This document shows positions 23,228 to 53,500 of a DNA stretch of 64,000 nucleotides, one piece after another. Numbering within the stretch: the first letter of the stretch is position 1; every line of letters begins with the position of its first letter. This DNA is from Escherichia phage vB_EcoM_ECO78. The notes under the pieces were generated by a model. The model saw only the letters and a list, made by a program, of their open reading frames with translations. It ran no database searches and was not told the DNA's origin. Both the position numbers and the translations under genes were made by a program. The stretch lies in sequence record PP526941.1; one strand, given 5' to 3'.

Positions 23228-23231
23228 CAAT

Positions 23232-23249
23232 GGGGACCTTTCGGTCCCC
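23232..23249. terminator. bidirectional rho-independent terminator between gene 54 and the convergent alt-region genes
   Basis: GGGGACC-UUUC-GGUCCCC followed by AUAUUUUUAUUU. Confidence 0.65.
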
Positions 23250-23255
23250 ATATTT

Positions 23256-23546
23256 TTATTTACGGAATGAAATGAAAGCAGCAACTGAAGCAACTAAACT
23301 GTCTTCAATATAAACTTCAATTTTTACCGGAGCTTCTGACTCAAATTTACCTGTTACTACACCCTGAAAAATACTTTCAGTCTGTTCTGGTTTTGAAAAA
23401 TTTTCAGAAGGAAAAATTCCGAACTTTTTATCTGTTCCAAAAATTTTGATAAATTCATCGTAAACTGCTTCATTAAAAGCATTATCAGCAGGAATAACGC
23501 CTTCAACTACAAGTTCTTGACCTAAAAAGCGTAAAGAAGATTTCAT
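23256..23546 (-). CDS. hypothetical protein downstream of alt
   Basis: 96-aa ORF with GAGGA SD, driven by an early-type promoter/leader cassette. Confidence 0.55.
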   Translation of the reverse strand: MKSSLRFLGQELVVEGVIPADNAFNEAVYDEFIKIFGTDKKFGIFPSENFSKPEQTESIFQGVVTGKFESEAPVKIEVYIEDSLVASVAAFISFRK

Positions 23547-23577
23547 TTTGTGTTCCTCATGTTATGTCAGTAAGACT

Positions 23578-23607
23578 ACTATAACACAACACGAGGGACT
23601 TGTAAAC
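23578..23607 (-). promoter_or_regulatory. T4 early-type promoter (copy 1 of a duplicated promoter/leader cassette)
   Basis: Minus strand: GTTTACA (-35), 17-18 nt spacer, TATAGT (-10), leader ...CAUAACAUGAGGA to ATG; near-identical to 38401-38454. Confidence 0.55.
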
Positions 23608-25664
23608 TACATTTTGAACTTTTTAGACATTCCGTTGATGTTAACCAAAGAAGCTAAGATTTGAGAAACTTCATTTTCCTCTTCTTTTGATTCTTCTACA
23701 AGGAATTGATTAAATCCAGCCATTGGACGAACTTCACCAGTTTCCATTAGATGGTCGCCATCATATACCGATTCCTCTAATTGTTCAGAAGGAGGAACGA
23801 TTGTACCTTCGATTAGATACTTGTTATAAGCAGTTTCTTTCATAAAGTACGTACTTACTTTATTAATCTTCAGTAAAATTCCACGTGGTAGAATAACTTC
23901 AGCTTCTGATGGAAATCCTGATAAATGACCTGGAACGATAACTTTGATTCGTTCAGCTCCTTTAATTACCATACCCACGCTAGTTTCAGCATCTTCATTA
24001 GCATATGTAGAATGACTACCCATATGCATCAAATCTTCTGCATCAACGGAACCTTCTCCTTCACCAGAAAATACTGCGCCGGAATCATCTAGAGCCATAT
24101 AGTTTTTACCATGCTCGCCGAAGATATTTGGTTTAAGTGATGTTGATACGAAGTTCTTGAAATAGAACATTTTATTTTCAATGTTATGACGCAAAGTTTT
24201 AAAGGTAACTTCTTGTCCGCGATAAAGCGTAGTTCCTGGAGGAAGAACTGATCCTTTGGCAAAGGCAGAATCAAGCGTCTCAATATGTTTAATAGCTCGT
24301 TCCATATATTCTTCACGGGTAGAATCTGGTTTACCCAAAAGGAACGAGTTCATTTCAACATATGAATCTGCACAATAATCTTCAATTACATCAGATTCAG
24401 CTTGAGTTAATCCTTTTGGAGTTACTTCAGTACTTGCATATTCATACGCCTGAGCGGCAGATTCATTAATCAATTTATAAATGCCATTCATTACAAATTG
24501 AATAATAGCTGTCTTTTCATCTGGCGTGGCTTTAGAACCTTTAACTAAATCATTAATAATTTTCTTAATAACATCAAAGCTATTAGAAATATTAATGTCA
24601 GCAAGATCGCTTAAAATTTTATCAGTTTTATAATCAAAGAATTCTTTATTCTTTAAATATTCTTGAGAACCTTGATATGTTATATCGCTCTGCAACTTGA
24701 TAGATGGATCACGTAAACGTGCATGGGCTAATGCAATATGATTTCGGAAGTTTTCTAGTTCATAATCGCTAGATTTAAAACGAGAAGCACTTCTCATACC
24801 ACCAATAGCTCCTTTGTTGAAGTTTGAACCAATCTGAATAACGCCAGAGTTCATCGGACCTTCTGCTTTATATACCGGAACCTTAGATTCAAACTCTTGA
24901 TATTTCTTAGCAGCGAAGCTATCACCCTGAAGTGAAGCATCAACAGTAGAATATTGAGCTTGTGCTGCTAATCGACGACTAATTTTAGTTTTCTGAATAA
25001 CAGCTTGATCAGTGCGCTTATCATTTTCTAAAGCAATAGAAGCAGCAACAGCGACAGCTTTAGGAACAGCATTACCTGTTTTAACGTCTACATAAACATC
25101 ACCAACCTTTGATTCAACTTTTGTGAATAACTCAGTTGAAATAGGAGGTACACCTGGAATGTCTTCTAAATTGGCATTTTTACGGTAAACCATAATATAT
25201 GCATACTTTTTATCATAGTCCCAGATTTCCTTTAAAAGAACATAACGACCTGCTCCTTTAGTACGTACTAAACGGTCAGCAATAACTTGCATTTGACGAG
25301 CTGCGCCATTTGTTTTACTTTTTAGTACGCGGAATAAGCATGCATCAATTTTATACTGTTTCATTGTTTGAAGAGCAGTATCAAAAACAGCATTAATGAC
25401 ACCAATTGGATTTCCACCCAAGTTTTTAAGCTTAACCAGCGATAGTTTCTCATTAACACCTATCATTACGATATGCATCATTTTATCGCCTGGCTTAACG
25501 TTTTTATTTGTATCACCGCCAGAGGTGTATGTACAAAATCTAAATCCAGGAAGCACGCTTTCTTCACCAGCTTGAATAGCAAAAATTTGAGGTATTTTAT
25601 GCTTAGGATTTAAGTTAACAACCGGCGCCGAAGCGCCGTCAAATAATTCTGTAATAAGTTCCAT
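23607..25664 (-). CDS. Alt-like ADP-ribosyltransferase, downstream paralogue
   Basis: 685 aa; N-terminus MELITELFDGASAPVVNLNPKHKIPQIF parallels the upstream Alt; C-terminal R-S-E ART signature (YRGQ...FVSTSL...SEAEVILPRG). Confidence 0.8.
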   Translation of the reverse strand: MELITELFDGASAPVVNLNPKHKIPQIFAIQAGEESVLPGFRFCTYTSGGDTNKNVKPGDKMMHIVMIGVNEKLSLVKLKNLGGNPIGVINAVFDTALQTMKQYKIDACLFRVLKSKTNGAARQMQVIADRLVRTKGAGRYVLLKEIWDYDKKYAYIMVYRKNANLEDIPGVPPISTELFTKVESKVGDVYVDVKTGNAVPKAVAVAASIALENDKRTDQAVIQKTKISRRLAAQAQYSTVDASLQGDSFAAKKYQEFESKVPVYKAEGPMNSGVIQIGSNFNKGAIGGMRSASRFKSSDYELENFRNHIALAHARLRDPSIKLQSDITYQGSQEYLKNKEFFDYKTDKILSDLADINISNSFDVIKKIINDLVKGSKATPDEKTAIIQFVMNGIYKLINESAAQAYEYASTEVTPKGLTQAESDVIEDYCADSYVEMNSFLLGKPDSTREEYMERAIKHIETLDSAFAKGSVLPPGTTLYRGQEVTFKTLRHNIENKMFYFKNFVSTSLKPNIFGEHGKNYMALDDSGAVFSGEGEGSVDAEDLMHMGSHSTYANEDAETSVGMVIKGAERIKVIVPGHLSGFPSEAEVILPRGILLKINKVSTYFMKETAYNKYLIEGTIVPPSEQLEESVYDGDHLMETGEVRPMAGFNQFLVEESKEEENEVSQILASLVNINGMSKKFKM

Positions 25665-25667
25665 GAT

Positions 25668-27764
25668 TTATCCTTGAACGAACTTGTAAGGCATGTTTGT
25701 AATATCTATGCAAGACGCAATAATTCCAAGAGATGATTCTACTTTTTGTTTAACATTTGATGAAACAAACGATGCAAAGTCAACTCTGTCTTCTATTTCA
25801 ATATCACCTGTCATTGCAACTACTTCACCGGTTTCCATTAGACGGTCACCGTCATAAATTACTGATTCGGTGAGTTCTTCCGTAGTCATAACTTCAGCTT
25901 GAATGAGTTTTGTATTATTAGATGTTGTTCCGTCATTATTAGAAGCATCAGTTATTTTATTAACTTTGACCATCAATCCGCGTGGTAGAATAACTTCAGC
26001 TTCTGTTGCTATTCCGAGACTTCCTGGATATACAACATTAACTTTATGAGCTCCATCAATTGCCCATCCTATTTGAACTTTAACGTATTCAGGATTTTCT
26101 TTATACGCTCTTATTTCGTTTGGATTAATAGTTATTCCTTCTTCATTTTTATCAACTGTCAATTCATTACGAGCTTCTGGTTCTAAAAGACCAATACCAG
26201 CATGCGTAATTCCAAAACGTCCAAAAATGATAGGAGTTAAAGAAGTAGATACAAAATTTCTGAAATAAAACACTTTATTTTTAACTAGTGCTTCGTATAT
26301 AGGAGCAGTCATGCTTTGAGCACGATAAACTGTAATGCCTTCTGGTATACGGTCACCGTTTTCAAAAGCTGAATCTAAGTTATTTATAGCAGATTCAATT
26401 TCTTTTTCACTCATTACATCATATCGTTCTGGATTGTAGCGACCCAAAAGAAGATTATTGATGTCAGTATATCCTGAACCGCAATACTCTCTAATGCCGC
26501 GCTTTTGTGATGGAGTATATTTAGAACCATCACGGGCAATAGTAATATCAATCATTGGACCTGCACCAATTCCAGAAAAGCTATAAATCATTCGTTTGAG
26601 GAATTTAGTTTTTGCTGCGTTCCAGGAATTTTTAGTTATTTCTTCCCAGACTTCATCTGGCTGTCCTTTACGGGTTTTATTATGTTTATCAAGCCAATTA
26701 TCTTTATATTCTTCAAAGAATTTATTAACAGCTGCTGCGTATTTCTCTAAACATTTTATTGAAGTAGTTGGTTCATTTTTAATCGCATTAAGAATTACAT
26801 CTTTAATTTTTTCAGAAACTTCATCAACCTCACTTTTTGAAAAGAATTTATAGTCATAGTGAAGTTCATTTGCAGTTCCTTCAGCAATAATTTTTGCTGC
26901 CTTAGTTTTAGAAGCTAATGAATTAATTCCAAGCTTCATTTCTTCTGCTTCGGGAATTAAAGGAGCGGTAGCAGGTTTATTAAAATTAGCTGCGGTAGAT
27001 TCATACTTCTGGAATAATTCACTTTCAAATCTAGAAGATTCTAATGATTGACTTTGCGCAATTGCTCTACGGGAAATTTTAACTTTAACAATAACAGCTT
27101 GGTCAGAACGTTTATCATTTTCTTGTGCAATAGATGCTGCAATTGCCTCATTTTTAGTTACTTGAGCTCCAGTATCTTTATTGATATAAACATCACCGAC
27201 CTTCGATTCAACTTTAGTAAAGAGCTCGGTACTAATTTCCGGAACTCCTGGAATGTCTTCTAGTGATACATTTTTGCGATGTATAAGAATATATGCATAC
27301 TTTTTATCATAATCCCAGAGTTCCTTAAGAAGGACGTATCTGCCACCTGAACGACTACGGATGAGCCTATCAGCAATAACTTGAATTTGTCGAGCTTGGC
27401 CAGCAGTTTTAGACTTAAGAATACGAAGCATACAAGCATCAATTTTATACTGACGCATAGTTTGCATTGCAACAGTAAAAACTGAATTGATATAATTAAT
27501 TGGGCTTGGTCCAAGACCTTTTAATTTAGCAATTGAACCTTTAGCAGTTAATGTAAAAGGAACAATATGCATCATTTTATCGCCCATCTTTAAATCACGA
27601 TTAGTATCACCTCCAGATGTATAGGTACATAAACGAAAGCCTGGTTGTTCAATTGCATCATCAACATGAACTGAAAAAATTTGCGGTATTTTCTTCTTTG
27701 GATTTAAGTTTGTAATCGGAAGAGTAGTATCTTCGTCAAATAATTCTGTAATGAGTTCCATCAT
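25668..27764 (-). CDS. alt: NAD-protein ADP-ribosyltransferase Alt (head-packaged)
   Basis: 698 aa (697 if started at the second ATG, 27761); N-terminal capsid-targeting region MELITELFDEDTT...; C-terminal ART motifs YRAQ...FVSTSL...TEAEVILPRG; late promoter upstream. Confidence 0.88.
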   Translation of the reverse strand: MMELITELFDEDTTLPITNLNPKKKIPQIFSVHVDDAIEQPGFRLCTYTSGGDTNRDLKMGDKMMHIVPFTLTAKGSIAKLKGLGPSPINYINSVFTVAMQTMRQYKIDACMLRILKSKTAGQARQIQVIADRLIRSRSGGRYVLLKELWDYDKKYAYILIHRKNVSLEDIPGVPEISTELFTKVESKVGDVYINKDTGAQVTKNEAIAASIAQENDKRSDQAVIVKVKISRRAIAQSQSLESSRFESELFQKYESTAANFNKPATAPLIPEAEEMKLGINSLASKTKAAKIIAEGTANELHYDYKFFSKSEVDEVSEKIKDVILNAIKNEPTTSIKCLEKYAAAVNKFFEEYKDNWLDKHNKTRKGQPDEVWEEITKNSWNAAKTKFLKRMIYSFSGIGAGPMIDITIARDGSKYTPSQKRGIREYCGSGYTDINNLLLGRYNPERYDVMSEKEIESAINNLDSAFENGDRIPEGITVYRAQSMTAPIYEALVKNKVFYFRNFVSTSLTPIIFGRFGITHAGIGLLEPEARNELTVDKNEEGITINPNEIRAYKENPEYVKVQIGWAIDGAHKVNVVYPGSLGIATEAEVILPRGLMVKVNKITDASNNDGTTSNNTKLIQAEVMTTEELTESVIYDGDRLMETGEVVAMTGDIEIEDRVDFASFVSSNVKQKVESSLGIIASCIDITNMPYKFVQG

Positions 27765-27784: not shown

Positions 27785-27792
27785 TATTTATA
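27785..27792 (-). promoter_or_regulatory. T4-type late promoter (TATAAATA on minus strand) for alt
   Basis: Plus-strand TATTTATA 21 nt upstream of the alt ATG, directly after a terminator hairpin. Confidence 0.55.
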
Positions 27793-32123: not shown

Positions 32124-32191
32124 TTTTATTCTCCGAGATGTTTAATTGCGGTACAGGTATATAATATCATATCCTGTACCAAAGTAAACAA

Positions 32192-32551: not shown

Positions 32552-32581
32552 ATACTATCACAAAGGAACCGTACTGTAAAC
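32552..32581 (-). promoter_or_regulatory. candidate T4 early-type promoter
   Basis: Minus strand GTTTAC, about 18-nt spacer, TAGTAT; lies directly downstream of a terminator hairpin. Confidence 0.4.
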
Positions 32582-37549: not shown

Positions 37550-37899
37550 TTAGAAAGGTCCTGGATGTCTTCTGCGAACTTGTTGAAGGAGTTGTTGATT
37601 TGTTTTTCAACCAATCCTGGCTTATGAGCCACCACATCCGCCTTCTTTGCGTCTTTGCGCAGTTTTTCATTTTCACGCTCAATAGCAGCAATTGCCTCAC
37701 GATTTTTATTATTCATCGCATCAATATAATTATACTGAATTCGCAAATTATTTAATGCTAAGGCGTTTTCATTGGCTGTTTTTGTAATTTCAGTAACTGA
37801 TGTTTCTAATCTTTCTACCTTATTTTTTAAAATAATAGATGTTCCGCCAAATGCTATTACAAGTAATAGCAATCCAGCTGTAAAATTACTTACATGCAT
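37546..37899 (-). CDS. inner-membrane spanin (i-spanin, Rz-like; T4 pseT.3 equivalent)
   Basis: 117 aa; N-terminal transmembrane helix (AGLLLLVIAFGGTSIIL) followed by a predicted coiled coil. Confidence 0.65.
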   Translation of the reverse strand: MHVSNFTAGLLLLVIAFGGTSIILKNKVERLETSVTEITKTANENALALNNLRIQYNYIDAMNNKNREAIAAIERENEKLRKDAKKADVVAHKPGLVEKQINNSFNKFAEDIQDLSK

Positions 37900-38393
37900 A
37901 AAGTTTTAATAACCTCTATAATATCGTCTTGAGAAAGACCATTAATTAAAATATGATGTTCAGCAGGAGATTTAGAAATTTTAAAGCATGCCTCAACATC
38001 TTCTGCCATATCCGATGCACTACGATTTGGATTACTAATTCCAAGACGATGTTTTCCTGTCAAAGGATTAACGATGATATAGCATTTGCAGCTATTGATA
38101 TGAACATTGGGTTGAGTCTGATTAATGAATACTTCGCACTCATACTTAGCGAGTTGATTTTCTAAAAAGACTTTCATCTCCTCAACCGCATCAGGAAGCA
38201 TATCACGGGCTTGCTCAAGACGACGATTTCGATATTCTTTAATGGTCGTTTTCCGCTTAACTTGCTTAGCTAAATCTTTCTTAAGATCGGTGATATATCC
38301 AACTCGACGATTTCCTTTGAATACAGAAATCCCATCTGTAGTATCACCGTATGCTTCAACGACCATTTCAGTAGTAATAAGCTGCAAATCCAT
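37890..38393 (-). CDS. alc: Alc (host transcription allele-specific terminator)
   Basis: 167 aa from the second ATG (the ORF track used the first); synteny between pseT.3 and rnlA; early promoter/leader cassette upstream. Confidence 0.8.
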   Translation of the reverse strand: MDLQLITTEMVVEAYGDTTDGISVFKGNRRVGYITDLKKDLAKQVKRKTTIKEYRNRRLEQARDMLPDAVEEMKVFLENQLAKYECEVFINQTQPNVHINSCKCYIIVNPLTGKHRLGISNPNRSASDMAEDVEACFKISKSPAEHHILINGLSQDDIIEVIKTLCM

Positions 38394-38424
38394 CATAAAG
38401 TCCTCATGTTATGTCAGTAAGACT

Positions 38425-38454
38425 ACTATAACACAACACGATGGACTTGTAAAC
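38425..38454 (-). promoter_or_regulatory. T4 early-type promoter (copy 2 of the duplicated promoter/leader cassette)
   Basis: Minus strand GTTTACA, spacer, TATAGT, leader with GAGGA SD to the alc ATG; 53 of 54 nt identical to 23555-23607. Confidence 0.55.
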
Positions 38455-38457
38455 AGC

Positions 38458-40045
<1,588 letters not shown>

Positions 40046-50576: not shown

Positions 50577-53500
50577 ATGGCCGAGATTAAAAGAAAGTTC
50601 AGAGCAGAAGATGGTCTGGACGCAGGTGGTGATAAAATAATCAACGTAGCTTTAGCTGATCGTACCGTAGGAACTGACGGTGTTAACGTTGATTACTTAA
50701 TTCAAGAAAACACAGTTCAACAATATGATCCAACTCGTGGATATTTAAAAGATTTTGTAATCATTTATGATAACCGCTTTTGGGCTGCTATAAATGATAT
50801 TCCAAAACCAGCAGGAGCTTTTAATAGCGGACGCTGGAGAGCATTACGTACGGACGCAAACTGGATTACAGTCTCATCTGGTTCATATCAATTAAAATCC
50901 GGTGAAGCTATTTCGGTTAACACTGCAGCTGGTAATGACATCACGTTTACTTTACCATCTTCTCCAATTGATGGTGATACTATCGTTCTCCAAGATATTG
51001 GAGGAAAACCTGGAGTTAACCAAGTTTTAATTGTAGCTCCAGTGCAAAGTATTGTAAACTTCAGAGGTGAACAAGTACGTTCAGTACTAATGACTCATCC
51101 AAAGTCACAGCTAGTTTTAATTTTTAGTAATCGTCTGTGGCAAATGTATGTTGCTGATTATAGTAGAGAAGCTATAGTTGTAACACCAGCGAATACTTAT
51201 CAAGCGCAATCAAATGATTTTATCGTACGTAGATTTACTTCTGCTGCACCGATAAATATTAAACTTCCACGATTTGCTAATCATGGCGATATTATTAATT
51301 TCGTTGATTTAGATAAACTAAATCCACTTTATCATACAATTGTTACTACATACGATGAAACGACTTCAGTACAAGAAGTTGGAACTCATTCCATTGAAGG
51401 CCGTACAACGATTGACGGTTTCTTGATGTTTGATGATAATGAGAAATTGTGGAGATTGTTTGACGGGGATAGTAAAGCGCGTTTACGTATCATAACGACT
51501 AATTCTAATATTCGTCCAAATGAAGAAGTTATGGTATTTGGTGCGAATAACGGAACAGCTCAGACAATTGAGCTTAAGCTTCCAACTAATATTTCTGTTG
51601 GTGATACTGTTAAAATTTCCATGAATTACATGAGAAAAGGACAAACAGTTAAAATCAAAGCTGCTGATGAAGATAAAATTGCTTCTTCAGTTCAATTGCT
51701 GCAATTCCCAAAACGCTCAGAATATCCACCTGAAGCTGAATGGGTTACAGTCCAAGAATTAGTTTTTAATGGTGAAACTAATTATGTTCCAGTTTTAGAG
51801 CTTGCTTATATAGAAGATTCTGATGGAAAATACTGGGTTGTACAGCAAAATGTTCCAACCGTAGAAAGAGTTGATTCTTTGAATGATTCTACTAGAGCAA
51901 GATTAGGCGTAATTGCTTTAGCTACACAAGCCCAAGCTAATGTCGATTTAGAAAATTCTCCGCAAAAAGAATTAGCAATTACTCCAGAAACATTAGCTAA
52001 CCGTACTGCTACTGAAACTCGCAGAGGTATTGCAAGAATAGCAACTACTGCTCAAGTGAATCAGAACACCACATTCTCTTTTGCTGACGATATTATCATC
52101 ACTCCTAAAAAGCTGAATGAAAGAACTGCTACAGAAACTCGCAGAGGTGTTGCTGAAATTGCTACGCAACAGGAAACTAATGCAGGAACCGATGATACTA
52201 CAATCATCACTCCTAAAAAGCTTCAAGCTCGTCAAGGTTCTGAATCATTATCTGGTATCGTAACTTTTGTATCTACTGCAGGTGCTACTCCAGCTTCTAG
52301 CCGTGAATTAAATGGTACGAATGTTTATAATAAAAACACTAATAATTTAGTTGTTTCACCTAAAGCTTTGGATCAGTATAAAGCTACTCCAACACAGCAA
52401 GGTGCAGTAATTTTAGCAGTTGAAAGTGAAGTAATTGCTGGACAAAGTCAGGAAGGATGGGCAAATGCAGTTGTAACGCCAGAAACGTTACATAAAAAGA
52501 CATCAACTGATGGAAGAATTGGTTTAATTGAAATTGCTACGCAAAGTGAAGTTAATACAGGAACTGATTATACTCGTGCAGTCACTCCTAAAACTTTAAA
52601 TGACCGTAGAGCAACTGAAAGTTTAAGTGGTATAGCTGAAATTGCTACACAAGTTGAATTCGACGCAGGCGTCGACGATACTCGTATCTCTACACCATTA
52701 AAAATTAAAACCAGATTTAATAGTACTGATCGTACTTCTGTTGTTGCTCTATCTGGATTAGTTGAATCAGGAACTCTCTGGGACCATTATACCCTTAATA
52801 TTCTTGAAGCAAATGAGACACAACGTGGTACACTTCGTGTAGCTACACAAGTTGAAGCTGCTGCAGGAACATTAGATAATGTTTTAATAACTCCTAAAAA
52901 GCTTTTAGGTACTAAATCTACCGAATCGCAAGAAGGTGTTATTAAAGTTGCAACACAGTCTGAAACTGTGACTGGAACGTCAGCAAATACTGCTGTATCT
53001 CCAAAAAATTTAAAGTGGATTGTGCAGAGTGAACCAACATGGGCTGCTACTACGGCGATAAGAGGGTTTGTTAAAACTTCATCTGGTTCAATTACATTCG
53101 TTGGTAATGATACAGTCGGTTCTACACAGGACTTAGAGTTATACGAGAAAAATAATTATGCAGTATCACCATATGAATTAAACCGCGTACTTGCTAACTA
53201 TTTGCCATTGAAAGCAAAAGCTGCAGATAGTAATTTATTGGATGGTCTAGATTCATCTCAGTTCATTCGTAGGGATATTGCCCAGACAGTTAATGGTTCA
53301 CTAACCTTAACCCAACAAACGAATCTGAGTGCCCCTCTTGTATCATCTAGTACTGCTACGTTTGGTGGTTCAGTTTCGGCAAATAGTACATTAACTATTT
53401 CTAACTCTGGAACAGCAACTCGTCTGATTTTTGAGAAAGGACCTCAAACTGGAACTAATCCAGCGCAGACGATGACTATCAGAGTTTGGGGAAATCAGTT

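Follow-up and report, generated by a model that had tools for sequence, protein, structure and literature searches.

Early promoters of phage T4 have a UP/-35/TGn/-10 architecture (Hinton, 2010, PMC2988021). A second kind of unit, the promoter-early stem-loop (PeSL) cassette, has been described in T4-type phages (Arbiol, 2010, PMC2839356; Comeau, 2014, PMC4122927); it consists of an upstream stem-loop, a promoter matching TTTACW-N17-TAYWAT (the PST/T4 consensus), and a 3' Shine-Dalgarno (SD) sequence with an ATG (PMC4122927). PeSLs are located at junctions of indels or replacements within hyperplastic regions. Here, we analyze a promoter cassette that occurs twice in a 64-kb stretch of Escherichia phage vB_EcoM_ECO78 (PP526941.1; 64,000 nucleotides, hereafter the window), once before alc and once before alt.-3. 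The element is of a standard, already characterized T4 regulatory type, and both copies are known from the T4 reference: the window cassettes are the same as the T4 early promoters of alc and alt.-3 to within one or two bases and occupy the same positions, i.e., between rnlA and alc and between alt.-2 and alt.-3. Membership in the T4 early-promoter class is seen in the GTTTAC(A/T) -35 element, the ~17-nt spacer, the TGn motif, and the TAnnnT -10 element. Two features differ from T4, namely, a C-to-A spacer change in the alc copy of the window and a full-length alt.-2, which in T4 is a remnant.

Similarly to PeSLs, the cassette is a compact intergenic early promoter that ends in an SD sequence and a start codon, and near-identical copies are found at separate loci, where they could be recombination substrates. 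Unlike PeSLs, neither copy has a stem-loop or terminator upstream, with coding sequence reaching up to the -35 element; the cassette occupies only two fixed loci and flanks no rearrangement in the sampled genomes; and its -10 element, TATAGT, has one mismatch to TAYWAT. Hairpins with T-runs are present upstream of other early promoters of the window, e.g., at 32581 and 47230. Functionally, the cassette resembles the promoter half of a PeSL, but it is not a full member of this group.

Our main reading, to which we assign a probability of about 0.85, is that both copies are immediate-early promoters of the T4 type, each with a short unstructured 5' leader and an SD sequence, providing early drive of alc and alt.-3, and that the pair arose by copying in the Tequatrovirus ancestor.

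Genomic setting and the 54-nt repeat

The window comes from a Tequatrovirus, with approximately 97–98% identity to RB27 and RB32; the nearest relatives include RB27, RB32, and ZCEC14 (~97.6–97.9% identity). Both cassette regions are 95–99% identical to about 500 records of Tequatrovirus (T4-like) phages. The genes relevant to the two copies are all on the minus strand, in the transcription order rnlA (gene 63), alc, pseT.3, pseT.2 at the alc locus and alt, alt.-2, alt.-3 at the partner locus. A hairpin terminator follows alt.-3 and lies between this gene and gene 54, which is on the plus strand and convergent with it. The main features are as follows:

37890..38396, minus strand: alc, inhibitor of host transcription (Pfam ALC match, 7.5e-92)
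38458..39582, minus strand: rnlA (gene 63), upstream neighbour of alc
38401..38454, minus strand: cassette copy B, early promoter, leader, and Shine-Dalgarno before alc, GTTTACAAGTCCATCGTGTTGTGTTATAGTAGTCTTACTGACATAACATGAGGA
23256..23546, minus strand: alt.-3, 96 aa (Pfam DUF5498, 1.4e-64; PHROG 1739 of unknown function)
23554..23607, minus strand: cassette copy A, promoter, leader, and SD before alt.-3
23607..25664, minus strand: alt.-2, 685 aa, full-length second Alt-like ADP-ribosyltransferase, upstream of copy A
23230..23251, no strand given: bidirectional terminator hairpin of alt.-3 and gene 54
27785..27792, minus strand: late-promoter motif TATAAATA, just upstream of alt

A repeat search over the 64-kb window aligned 23554–23607 with 38401–38454, with 53 of 54 bases (98%) being equal. 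On the minus strand, the repeat reads GTTTACAAGTCC[C/A]TCGTGTTGTGTTATAGTAGTCTTACTGACATAACATGAGGA, the sole mismatch falling into the spacer between the -35 and -10 elements, with C in the alt.-3 copy and A in the alc copy. Its borders are the G of GTTTAC at one end and the last A of GAGGA at the other, and the flanks of the two copies are unrelated on both sides. The exact 41-nt core is the longest exact direct repeat of the window; in 20 first-order Markov simulations, the longest repeats were 15–18 nt. An earlier, sequence-only reading of the window had proposed the element at 38401–38454 together with a partner copy, and both its coordinates and the repeat hold; the partner itself, which was given as 23555–23607, has the correct end but starts one base earlier, at 23554.

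The background set comprised ten GTTTAC-N16-18-TAnnnT sites in the window. Among these, the alc/alt.-3 pair has a pairwise identity of 0.98, compared with 0.73 for the next-best pair and a median of 0.59, and hence the match goes beyond the shared early-promoter consensus. Identities among the remaining early promoters, and between them and this pair, range from 37 to 73%. In the leader part, all 24 of 24 positions (1.00) agree between the two copies, against 0.08–0.58 in other early-promoter pairs.

Elsewhere in the window, three diverged 68-nt coding repeats (ATYACTCCTAAAA...GAAACTCGCAGAGGT...) with associated 25-nt repeats were observed at 51978–52648 on the plus strand; these resemble a peptide motif repeated within a structural gene of that strand.

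The 96-aa ORF behind copy A had been described as anonymous and as lying downstream of alt. The partner cassette is indeed directly before this ORF, but the ORF has a name, alt.-3 (DUF5498), and it follows alt.-2, the second Alt paralogue, rather than alt. The genes alt and alt.-2 are tandem paralogues with approximately 71–80% DNA identity at an offset of 2091–2097 nt (23855–25667 vs. 25952–27764), and their 5' ends are 94% identical. As for the Alt.-3 protein, a search of PDB sequences yielded no match, and the AlphaFold model built from the single sequence was unusable (mean pLDDT 44). Homology between the N-termini of Alc and Alt.-3, hinted at by a DNA alignment (...GTNGTTGAAG...), was rejected, as BLASTP produced no alignment.

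Anatomy of the promoter and leader

The elements of copy B and the region upstream of copy A are located as follows:

38448..38454, minus strand: -35 element GTTTACA of copy B (sigma-70 hexamer TTTACA at 38453–38448)
38425..38433, minus strand: extended -10 element of copy B, TGT (TGn, 38433–38431) plus TATAGT (38430–38425)
38406..38418, minus strand: predicted transcribed leader ACUGACAUAACAU of copy B, placed from promoter geometry
38401..38405, minus strand: Shine-Dalgarno GAGGA of copy B, at the 3' end of the repeat
23608..23626, minus strand: likely UP element of copy A, the A/T-rich sequence CTAAAAAGTTCAAAATGTA spanning approximately -37 to -55

The -35 element of copy B begins 3 nt past the rnlA stop codon, and that of copy A (GTTTACA at 23607–23601, minus strand) shares the G of GTTTAC with alt.-2, where it is the last base of the stop codon TAG. 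Both copies have a spacer of 17 nt between the -35 and -10 elements. The combination TTTACA-17 nt-TATAGT with TG matches the sigma-70 consensus at 10 of 12 positions, and the cassette promoter is the top minus-strand match in each of the two scanned regions. In two GenBank records, Lutter and fPS-65, a promoter is annotated at exactly this spot. Judging from the promoter geometry, transcription from copy B probably starts near 38418, i.e., 7 nt past the -10 element, and that from copy A near 23571. The leader occupies about 14 nt before the SD sequence, and with a start approximately 7 nt past the -10 element its full length, including GAGGA, would be roughly 22–25 nt.

The leader is a plain, open translation-initiation region and not a structured element, since both leaders fold no better than shuffled sequences (z-scores from -1.2 to +1.9) and Rfam contains no family matching the cassette, its sub-threshold matches being confined to the vicinity of the terminator. 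An inverted repeat bracketing the -10 element is also absent from the alc/alt.-3 cassette. Such repeats were observed at other early promoters of the window (GTTTAC at 32189, 35476, and 46505, minus strand), e.g., GGTACAGG...CCTGTACC and GGTAGAG...CTCTACC, and are conserved in T4, RB69, and IME08.

The similarity ends at the SD sequence. The bases between GAGGA and ATG are ACACAAA before alt.-3 and CTTT before alc, or CTTTATG if counted up to the second ATG of alc, and the coding starts of the two genes differ. Two adjacent in-frame ATGs are present in alc, at 38396 and 38393; the second is annotated as the start in T4 (167 aa) and the first in many relatives (168 aa). Accordingly, GAGGA is separated from the start codon by 7 nt in alt.-3 and by 4 nt (first ATG) or 7 nt (second ATG) in alc, the distance being the same in both genes if the second ATG is used. 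Equal translational efficiency of alc and alt.-3, as expected in the sequence-only reading, cannot be assumed, since the SD-to-ATG bases and the coding starts differ.

A mini-ORF of 4–5 codons is opened by an AUG in the SD region (CAUGAGGA; minus strand, 38391–38409 and 23542–23562), and in both copies it terminates at a UGA sharing bases with the main start codon (AUGA). No SD sequence precedes it. RB69, IME08, and Melville have the same mini-ORF before alt.-3, and it probably arises incidentally from the conserved ATGAGGA-N7-ATGA geometry.

The RegB endonuclease motif is GGAG/U (PMC3014915). It is absent from the shared SD sequence, in which GAGGA is followed by C or A (38401–38405, 23554–23558). 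GGAG is present in neighbouring early cassettes of the window (AAGGAGAA; 32581- and 46505-type), as well as in the alc leaders of RB69 and IME08. Inactivation by RegB may spare the alc and alt.-3 mRNAs of Tequatrovirus.

Upstream of the repeat, the copies are different. Between -37 and -55, copy A has 15 of 19 A/T positions (79%), with A-tracts, compared with 10 of 19 (53%) in copy B, which becomes A/T-rich only farther out. The alc promoter may therefore be weaker or behave differently. More generally, early promoters with identical -35, TGn, and -10 elements can respond differently to Alt-modified polymerase (Hinton, 2010, PMC2988021), and, given this together with the difference in A/T content, the alc and alt.-3 promoters need not be equal in strength. 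The alt.-2 gene bears on the same region. It is full-length, with an ADP-ribosyltransferase domain, in the window, RB32, G9062, ECO4, and wV7, and is only a remnant in T4 and FL23. The T4/FL23 deletion stops 19 nt upstream of copy A and not inside the cassette, so that the part of alt.-2 kept beside the T4 cassette is exactly the A/T-rich stretch from -37 to -55. Retention of precisely this stretch suggests that it belongs to the functional promoter.

Distribution and origin of the pair

That the two cassettes are nearly identical is a trait fixed in Tequatrovirus. In T4 (NC_000866), each of the two loci likewise carries a copy; the copies are again 53/54 identical, with a mismatch different from that of the window, a G-to-A change in the alt.-3 leader. 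A blastn search with the 54-mer consensus (word size 11) found 997 places in 499 phage records, with two places per record in 40 of 40 among the matches listed, and a scan of IMG/VR with the core motif found seven loci. The apparent presence of a single copy in many genomes, T4 included, in a megablast search was an artifact of the 28-nt word, as direct reading of T4 and blastn show two.

The alc copies and the alt.-3 copies have one and the same consensus in the genomes and contigs that were read. The two copies are identical in G9062, ECO4, FL23, and one IMG/VR contig; they differ at one position in the window and in T4 and at two in wV7. The variants are private to one copy, as is the C-to-A change in the window's alc copy, and are mostly located in the -35/-10 spacer; none was seen in both copies of any sampled genome. 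Changes just 3' of the -10 element were observed in wV7 and G28. Orthologous cassettes differ by 0–3 per 54 nt, matching a genome divergence of 2–3%.

A different picture emerges from other T4-type lineages. In RB69 (Mosigvirus), IME08 (Dhakavirus), Marfa (Marfavirus), and Melville (Gelderlandvirus), a GTTTAC promoter abuts the upstream stop codon at alc and alt.-3 alike, and, as in the window, the leader ends in ...A(C/A)(A/G)(T/C)GAGGA or a similar sequence. However, the alc and alt.-3 promoters within these genomes are only 0.58–0.75 identical, in contrast to 0.98 in the window. Background comparisons of early promoters in the same regions of these lineages gave medians of 0.54–0.66 and a maximum of 0.79, and all four alc/alt.-3 pairs are inside this range. 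Orthologous leaders of other genera differ substantially from the cassette leader. Since the four lineages have both promoters, at background likeness, comparison across genera points to an own early promoter for each of alc and alt.-3 as the old arrangement and to near-identity as specific to Tequatrovirus.

As pairs outside Tequatrovirus are no more alike than any early promoters, the simplest reading is that one copying event in the Tequatrovirus ancestor made the near-identical pair. One promoter-to-SD segment would have replaced the segment of the other locus, probably anchored on motifs common to all such cassettes, GTTTACA at the left end and ATGAGGA at the right end, and the copies would since have drifted by private point changes alone. 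The T4 cassette is 0.72–0.74 identical to alt.-3 orthologues and 0.63–0.77 identical to alc orthologues; these ranges overlap, so that either locus could have been the donor. An alternative history, in which the promoters were identical in an older ancestor and diverged later everywhere but in Tequatrovirus, is less parsimonious.

Could the copies instead be kept identical by ongoing gene conversion, or represent an active, PeSL-type regulatory module that is still mobile and mediates rearrangements? Gene shuffling via recombination of early-promoter cassettes has been reported in T4-type phages (PMC4122927), the cassette ends are motifs common to such cassettes, and alt.-2 beside copy A is polymorphic, being full-length here and truncated in T4 and FL23. 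In addition, a contig and wV7 share a G-to-A spacer variant (CTCATG), which the former carries in its alc copy and the latter in its alt.-3 copy. These points are outweighed, in our opinion, by the absence of a stem-loop upstream of either copy, by the constancy of the two loci, with two copies typical per record, and by the private variants, never found in both copies of one genome, which led us to reject ongoing concerted evolution. Nor is ongoing conversion needed, since 0–3 differences per 54 nt between orthologues are what a genome divergence of 2–3% predicts. The only extra copy found, in G28, comes from a duplication with its junction outside the cassette. We thus regard conversion or mobility as improbable.

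The G28 case is as follows. In vB_EcoM-G28 (NC_054916.1), a tandem duplication of approximately 350 bp covers the 3' end of rnlA, the cassette, and the first ~165 nt of alc, yielding a truncated alc' ORF together with the additional cassette copy. The duplication junction lies within alc/rnlA coding sequence. Both alc-side copies have the consensus -10 element TATAAT.

Selection on the leader for a shared post-transcriptional operator, e.g., a site for an RNA-binding factor of the phage or the host co-regulating translation or decay of alc and alt.-3 mRNAs, is an explanation that we hold very improbable. It would account for the complete identity of the leader part (24/24), where other early-promoter pairs are only 8–58% identical, and for the absence of the RegB GGAG/U motif from both leaders, unlike several neighbouring cassettes; moreover, with the second alc ATG annotated in T4, both genes have the arrangement GAGGA, 7 nt, ATG. 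At the same time, changes in the leader are tolerated, as demonstrated by the G-to-A change in the alt.-3 copy of T4 and those just after the -10 element in wV7 and G28; the leader has neither structure nor an Rfam family; its orthologues in other genera are substantially different; and a recent common origin suffices for the identity. Finally, a chance or consensus-driven resemblance of two independent early promoters, although GTTTAC, TGn, and the TAnnnT -10 element are common to all T4 early promoters, is refuted by the background comparison and has a negligible probability, given an identity of 0.98 against 0.73 for the next-best pair and a median of 0.59, a 41-nt exact run against 15–18 nt in simulations, and the inclusion of unconstrained spacer and leader positions.

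Expression timing and biological meaning

Under the main reading of two immediate-early promoters related by copying, the host sigma-70 RNA polymerase would recognize the -35 GTTTACA, TGn, and -10 TATAGT elements right after DNA injection and start transcription approximately 7 nt 3' of the -10 element, and the resulting mRNA would carry GAGGA 4–7 nt ahead of the start codon. Copy B would provide an extra early start for alc and for the downstream genes, from pseT.3 and pseT.2 onward, with alc being the head of a polycistronic unit. No terminator-like site was found between rnlA and alc, and hence read-through from rnlA into alc is possible. Copy A would drive alt.-3 as a monocistronic unit, since the terminator hairpin at 23230..23251 follows the gene and would end its transcript. 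Read-through from upstream can reach alt.-3 as well, and late read-through from the alt promoter TATAAATA towards alt.-2 and alt.-3 is possible. No mapped middle promoters are located near alc or alt.-3.

The published T4 data agree with this scheme. Time-resolved RNA-seq and proteomics assign both alc and alt.-3 of T4 to the class "early-RNA_early-Protein" (Wolfram-Schauerte et al., 2022, PMC9697503, Tables S2, S4), and the T4 Alt.-3 protein was detected from the second sampled time point, rising to high intensity (PMC9697503). Their T4 neighbours belong to other classes, namely, early RNA and late protein for rnlA, early RNA and middle protein for pseT.3, and middle RNA for alt.-2 and alt.-1 (PMC9697503). 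By orthology, these data bear out the expectation of the sequence-only reading that alc and the 96-aa ORF have the same timing; its proposal that the cassette drives alc agrees with the position of copy B, on the minus strand directly before a gene with a Pfam ALC match (7.5e-92). The further step of that reading, by which the 96-aa ORF was tied to the regulatory class of Alc, stands for the timing class and tells little of function: many other T4 genes are listed in the immediate-early class, and membership in it is hence weak evidence on the function of Alt.-3. Overall, that reading is right on the repeat and, with these corrections, broadly right on its meaning.

The finding has little importance beyond housekeeping. 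It confirms that alc and alt.-3 of this phage are under T4 immediate-early promoters of the standard kind. What is new, and only mildly so, is that the identity of the two cassettes would result from one Tequatrovirus-specific replacement of a promoter cassette. A more far-reaching version, which we consider unlikely, is that, in the ancestor of Tequatrovirus, the segment from promoter to SD passed by copying from one of the two loci (alc or alt.-3) to the other, as a cassette lacking the stem-loop, and was retained because matched dosage and timing of Alc and Alt.-3 matter. If this were true, Alt.-3 would be a partner in the immediate-early host takeover, and cassette conversion would, beside PeSL gene shuffling, rewire expression in T4-type phages.

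The pair is of modest practical use in two ways. In T4, alt.-3 can be deleted, and mutations extending its C-terminus enable escape from the CmdTAC defence system, degradation of CmdA being blocked (Vassallo et al., 2024, PMC11618068); the cassette gives context for this gene and its escape mutants. Furthermore, since the core promoter and leader are identical in the two copies and the UP region and SD-to-start spacer differ, the cassette pair is a natural experiment for early promoter strength and responsiveness to Alt.
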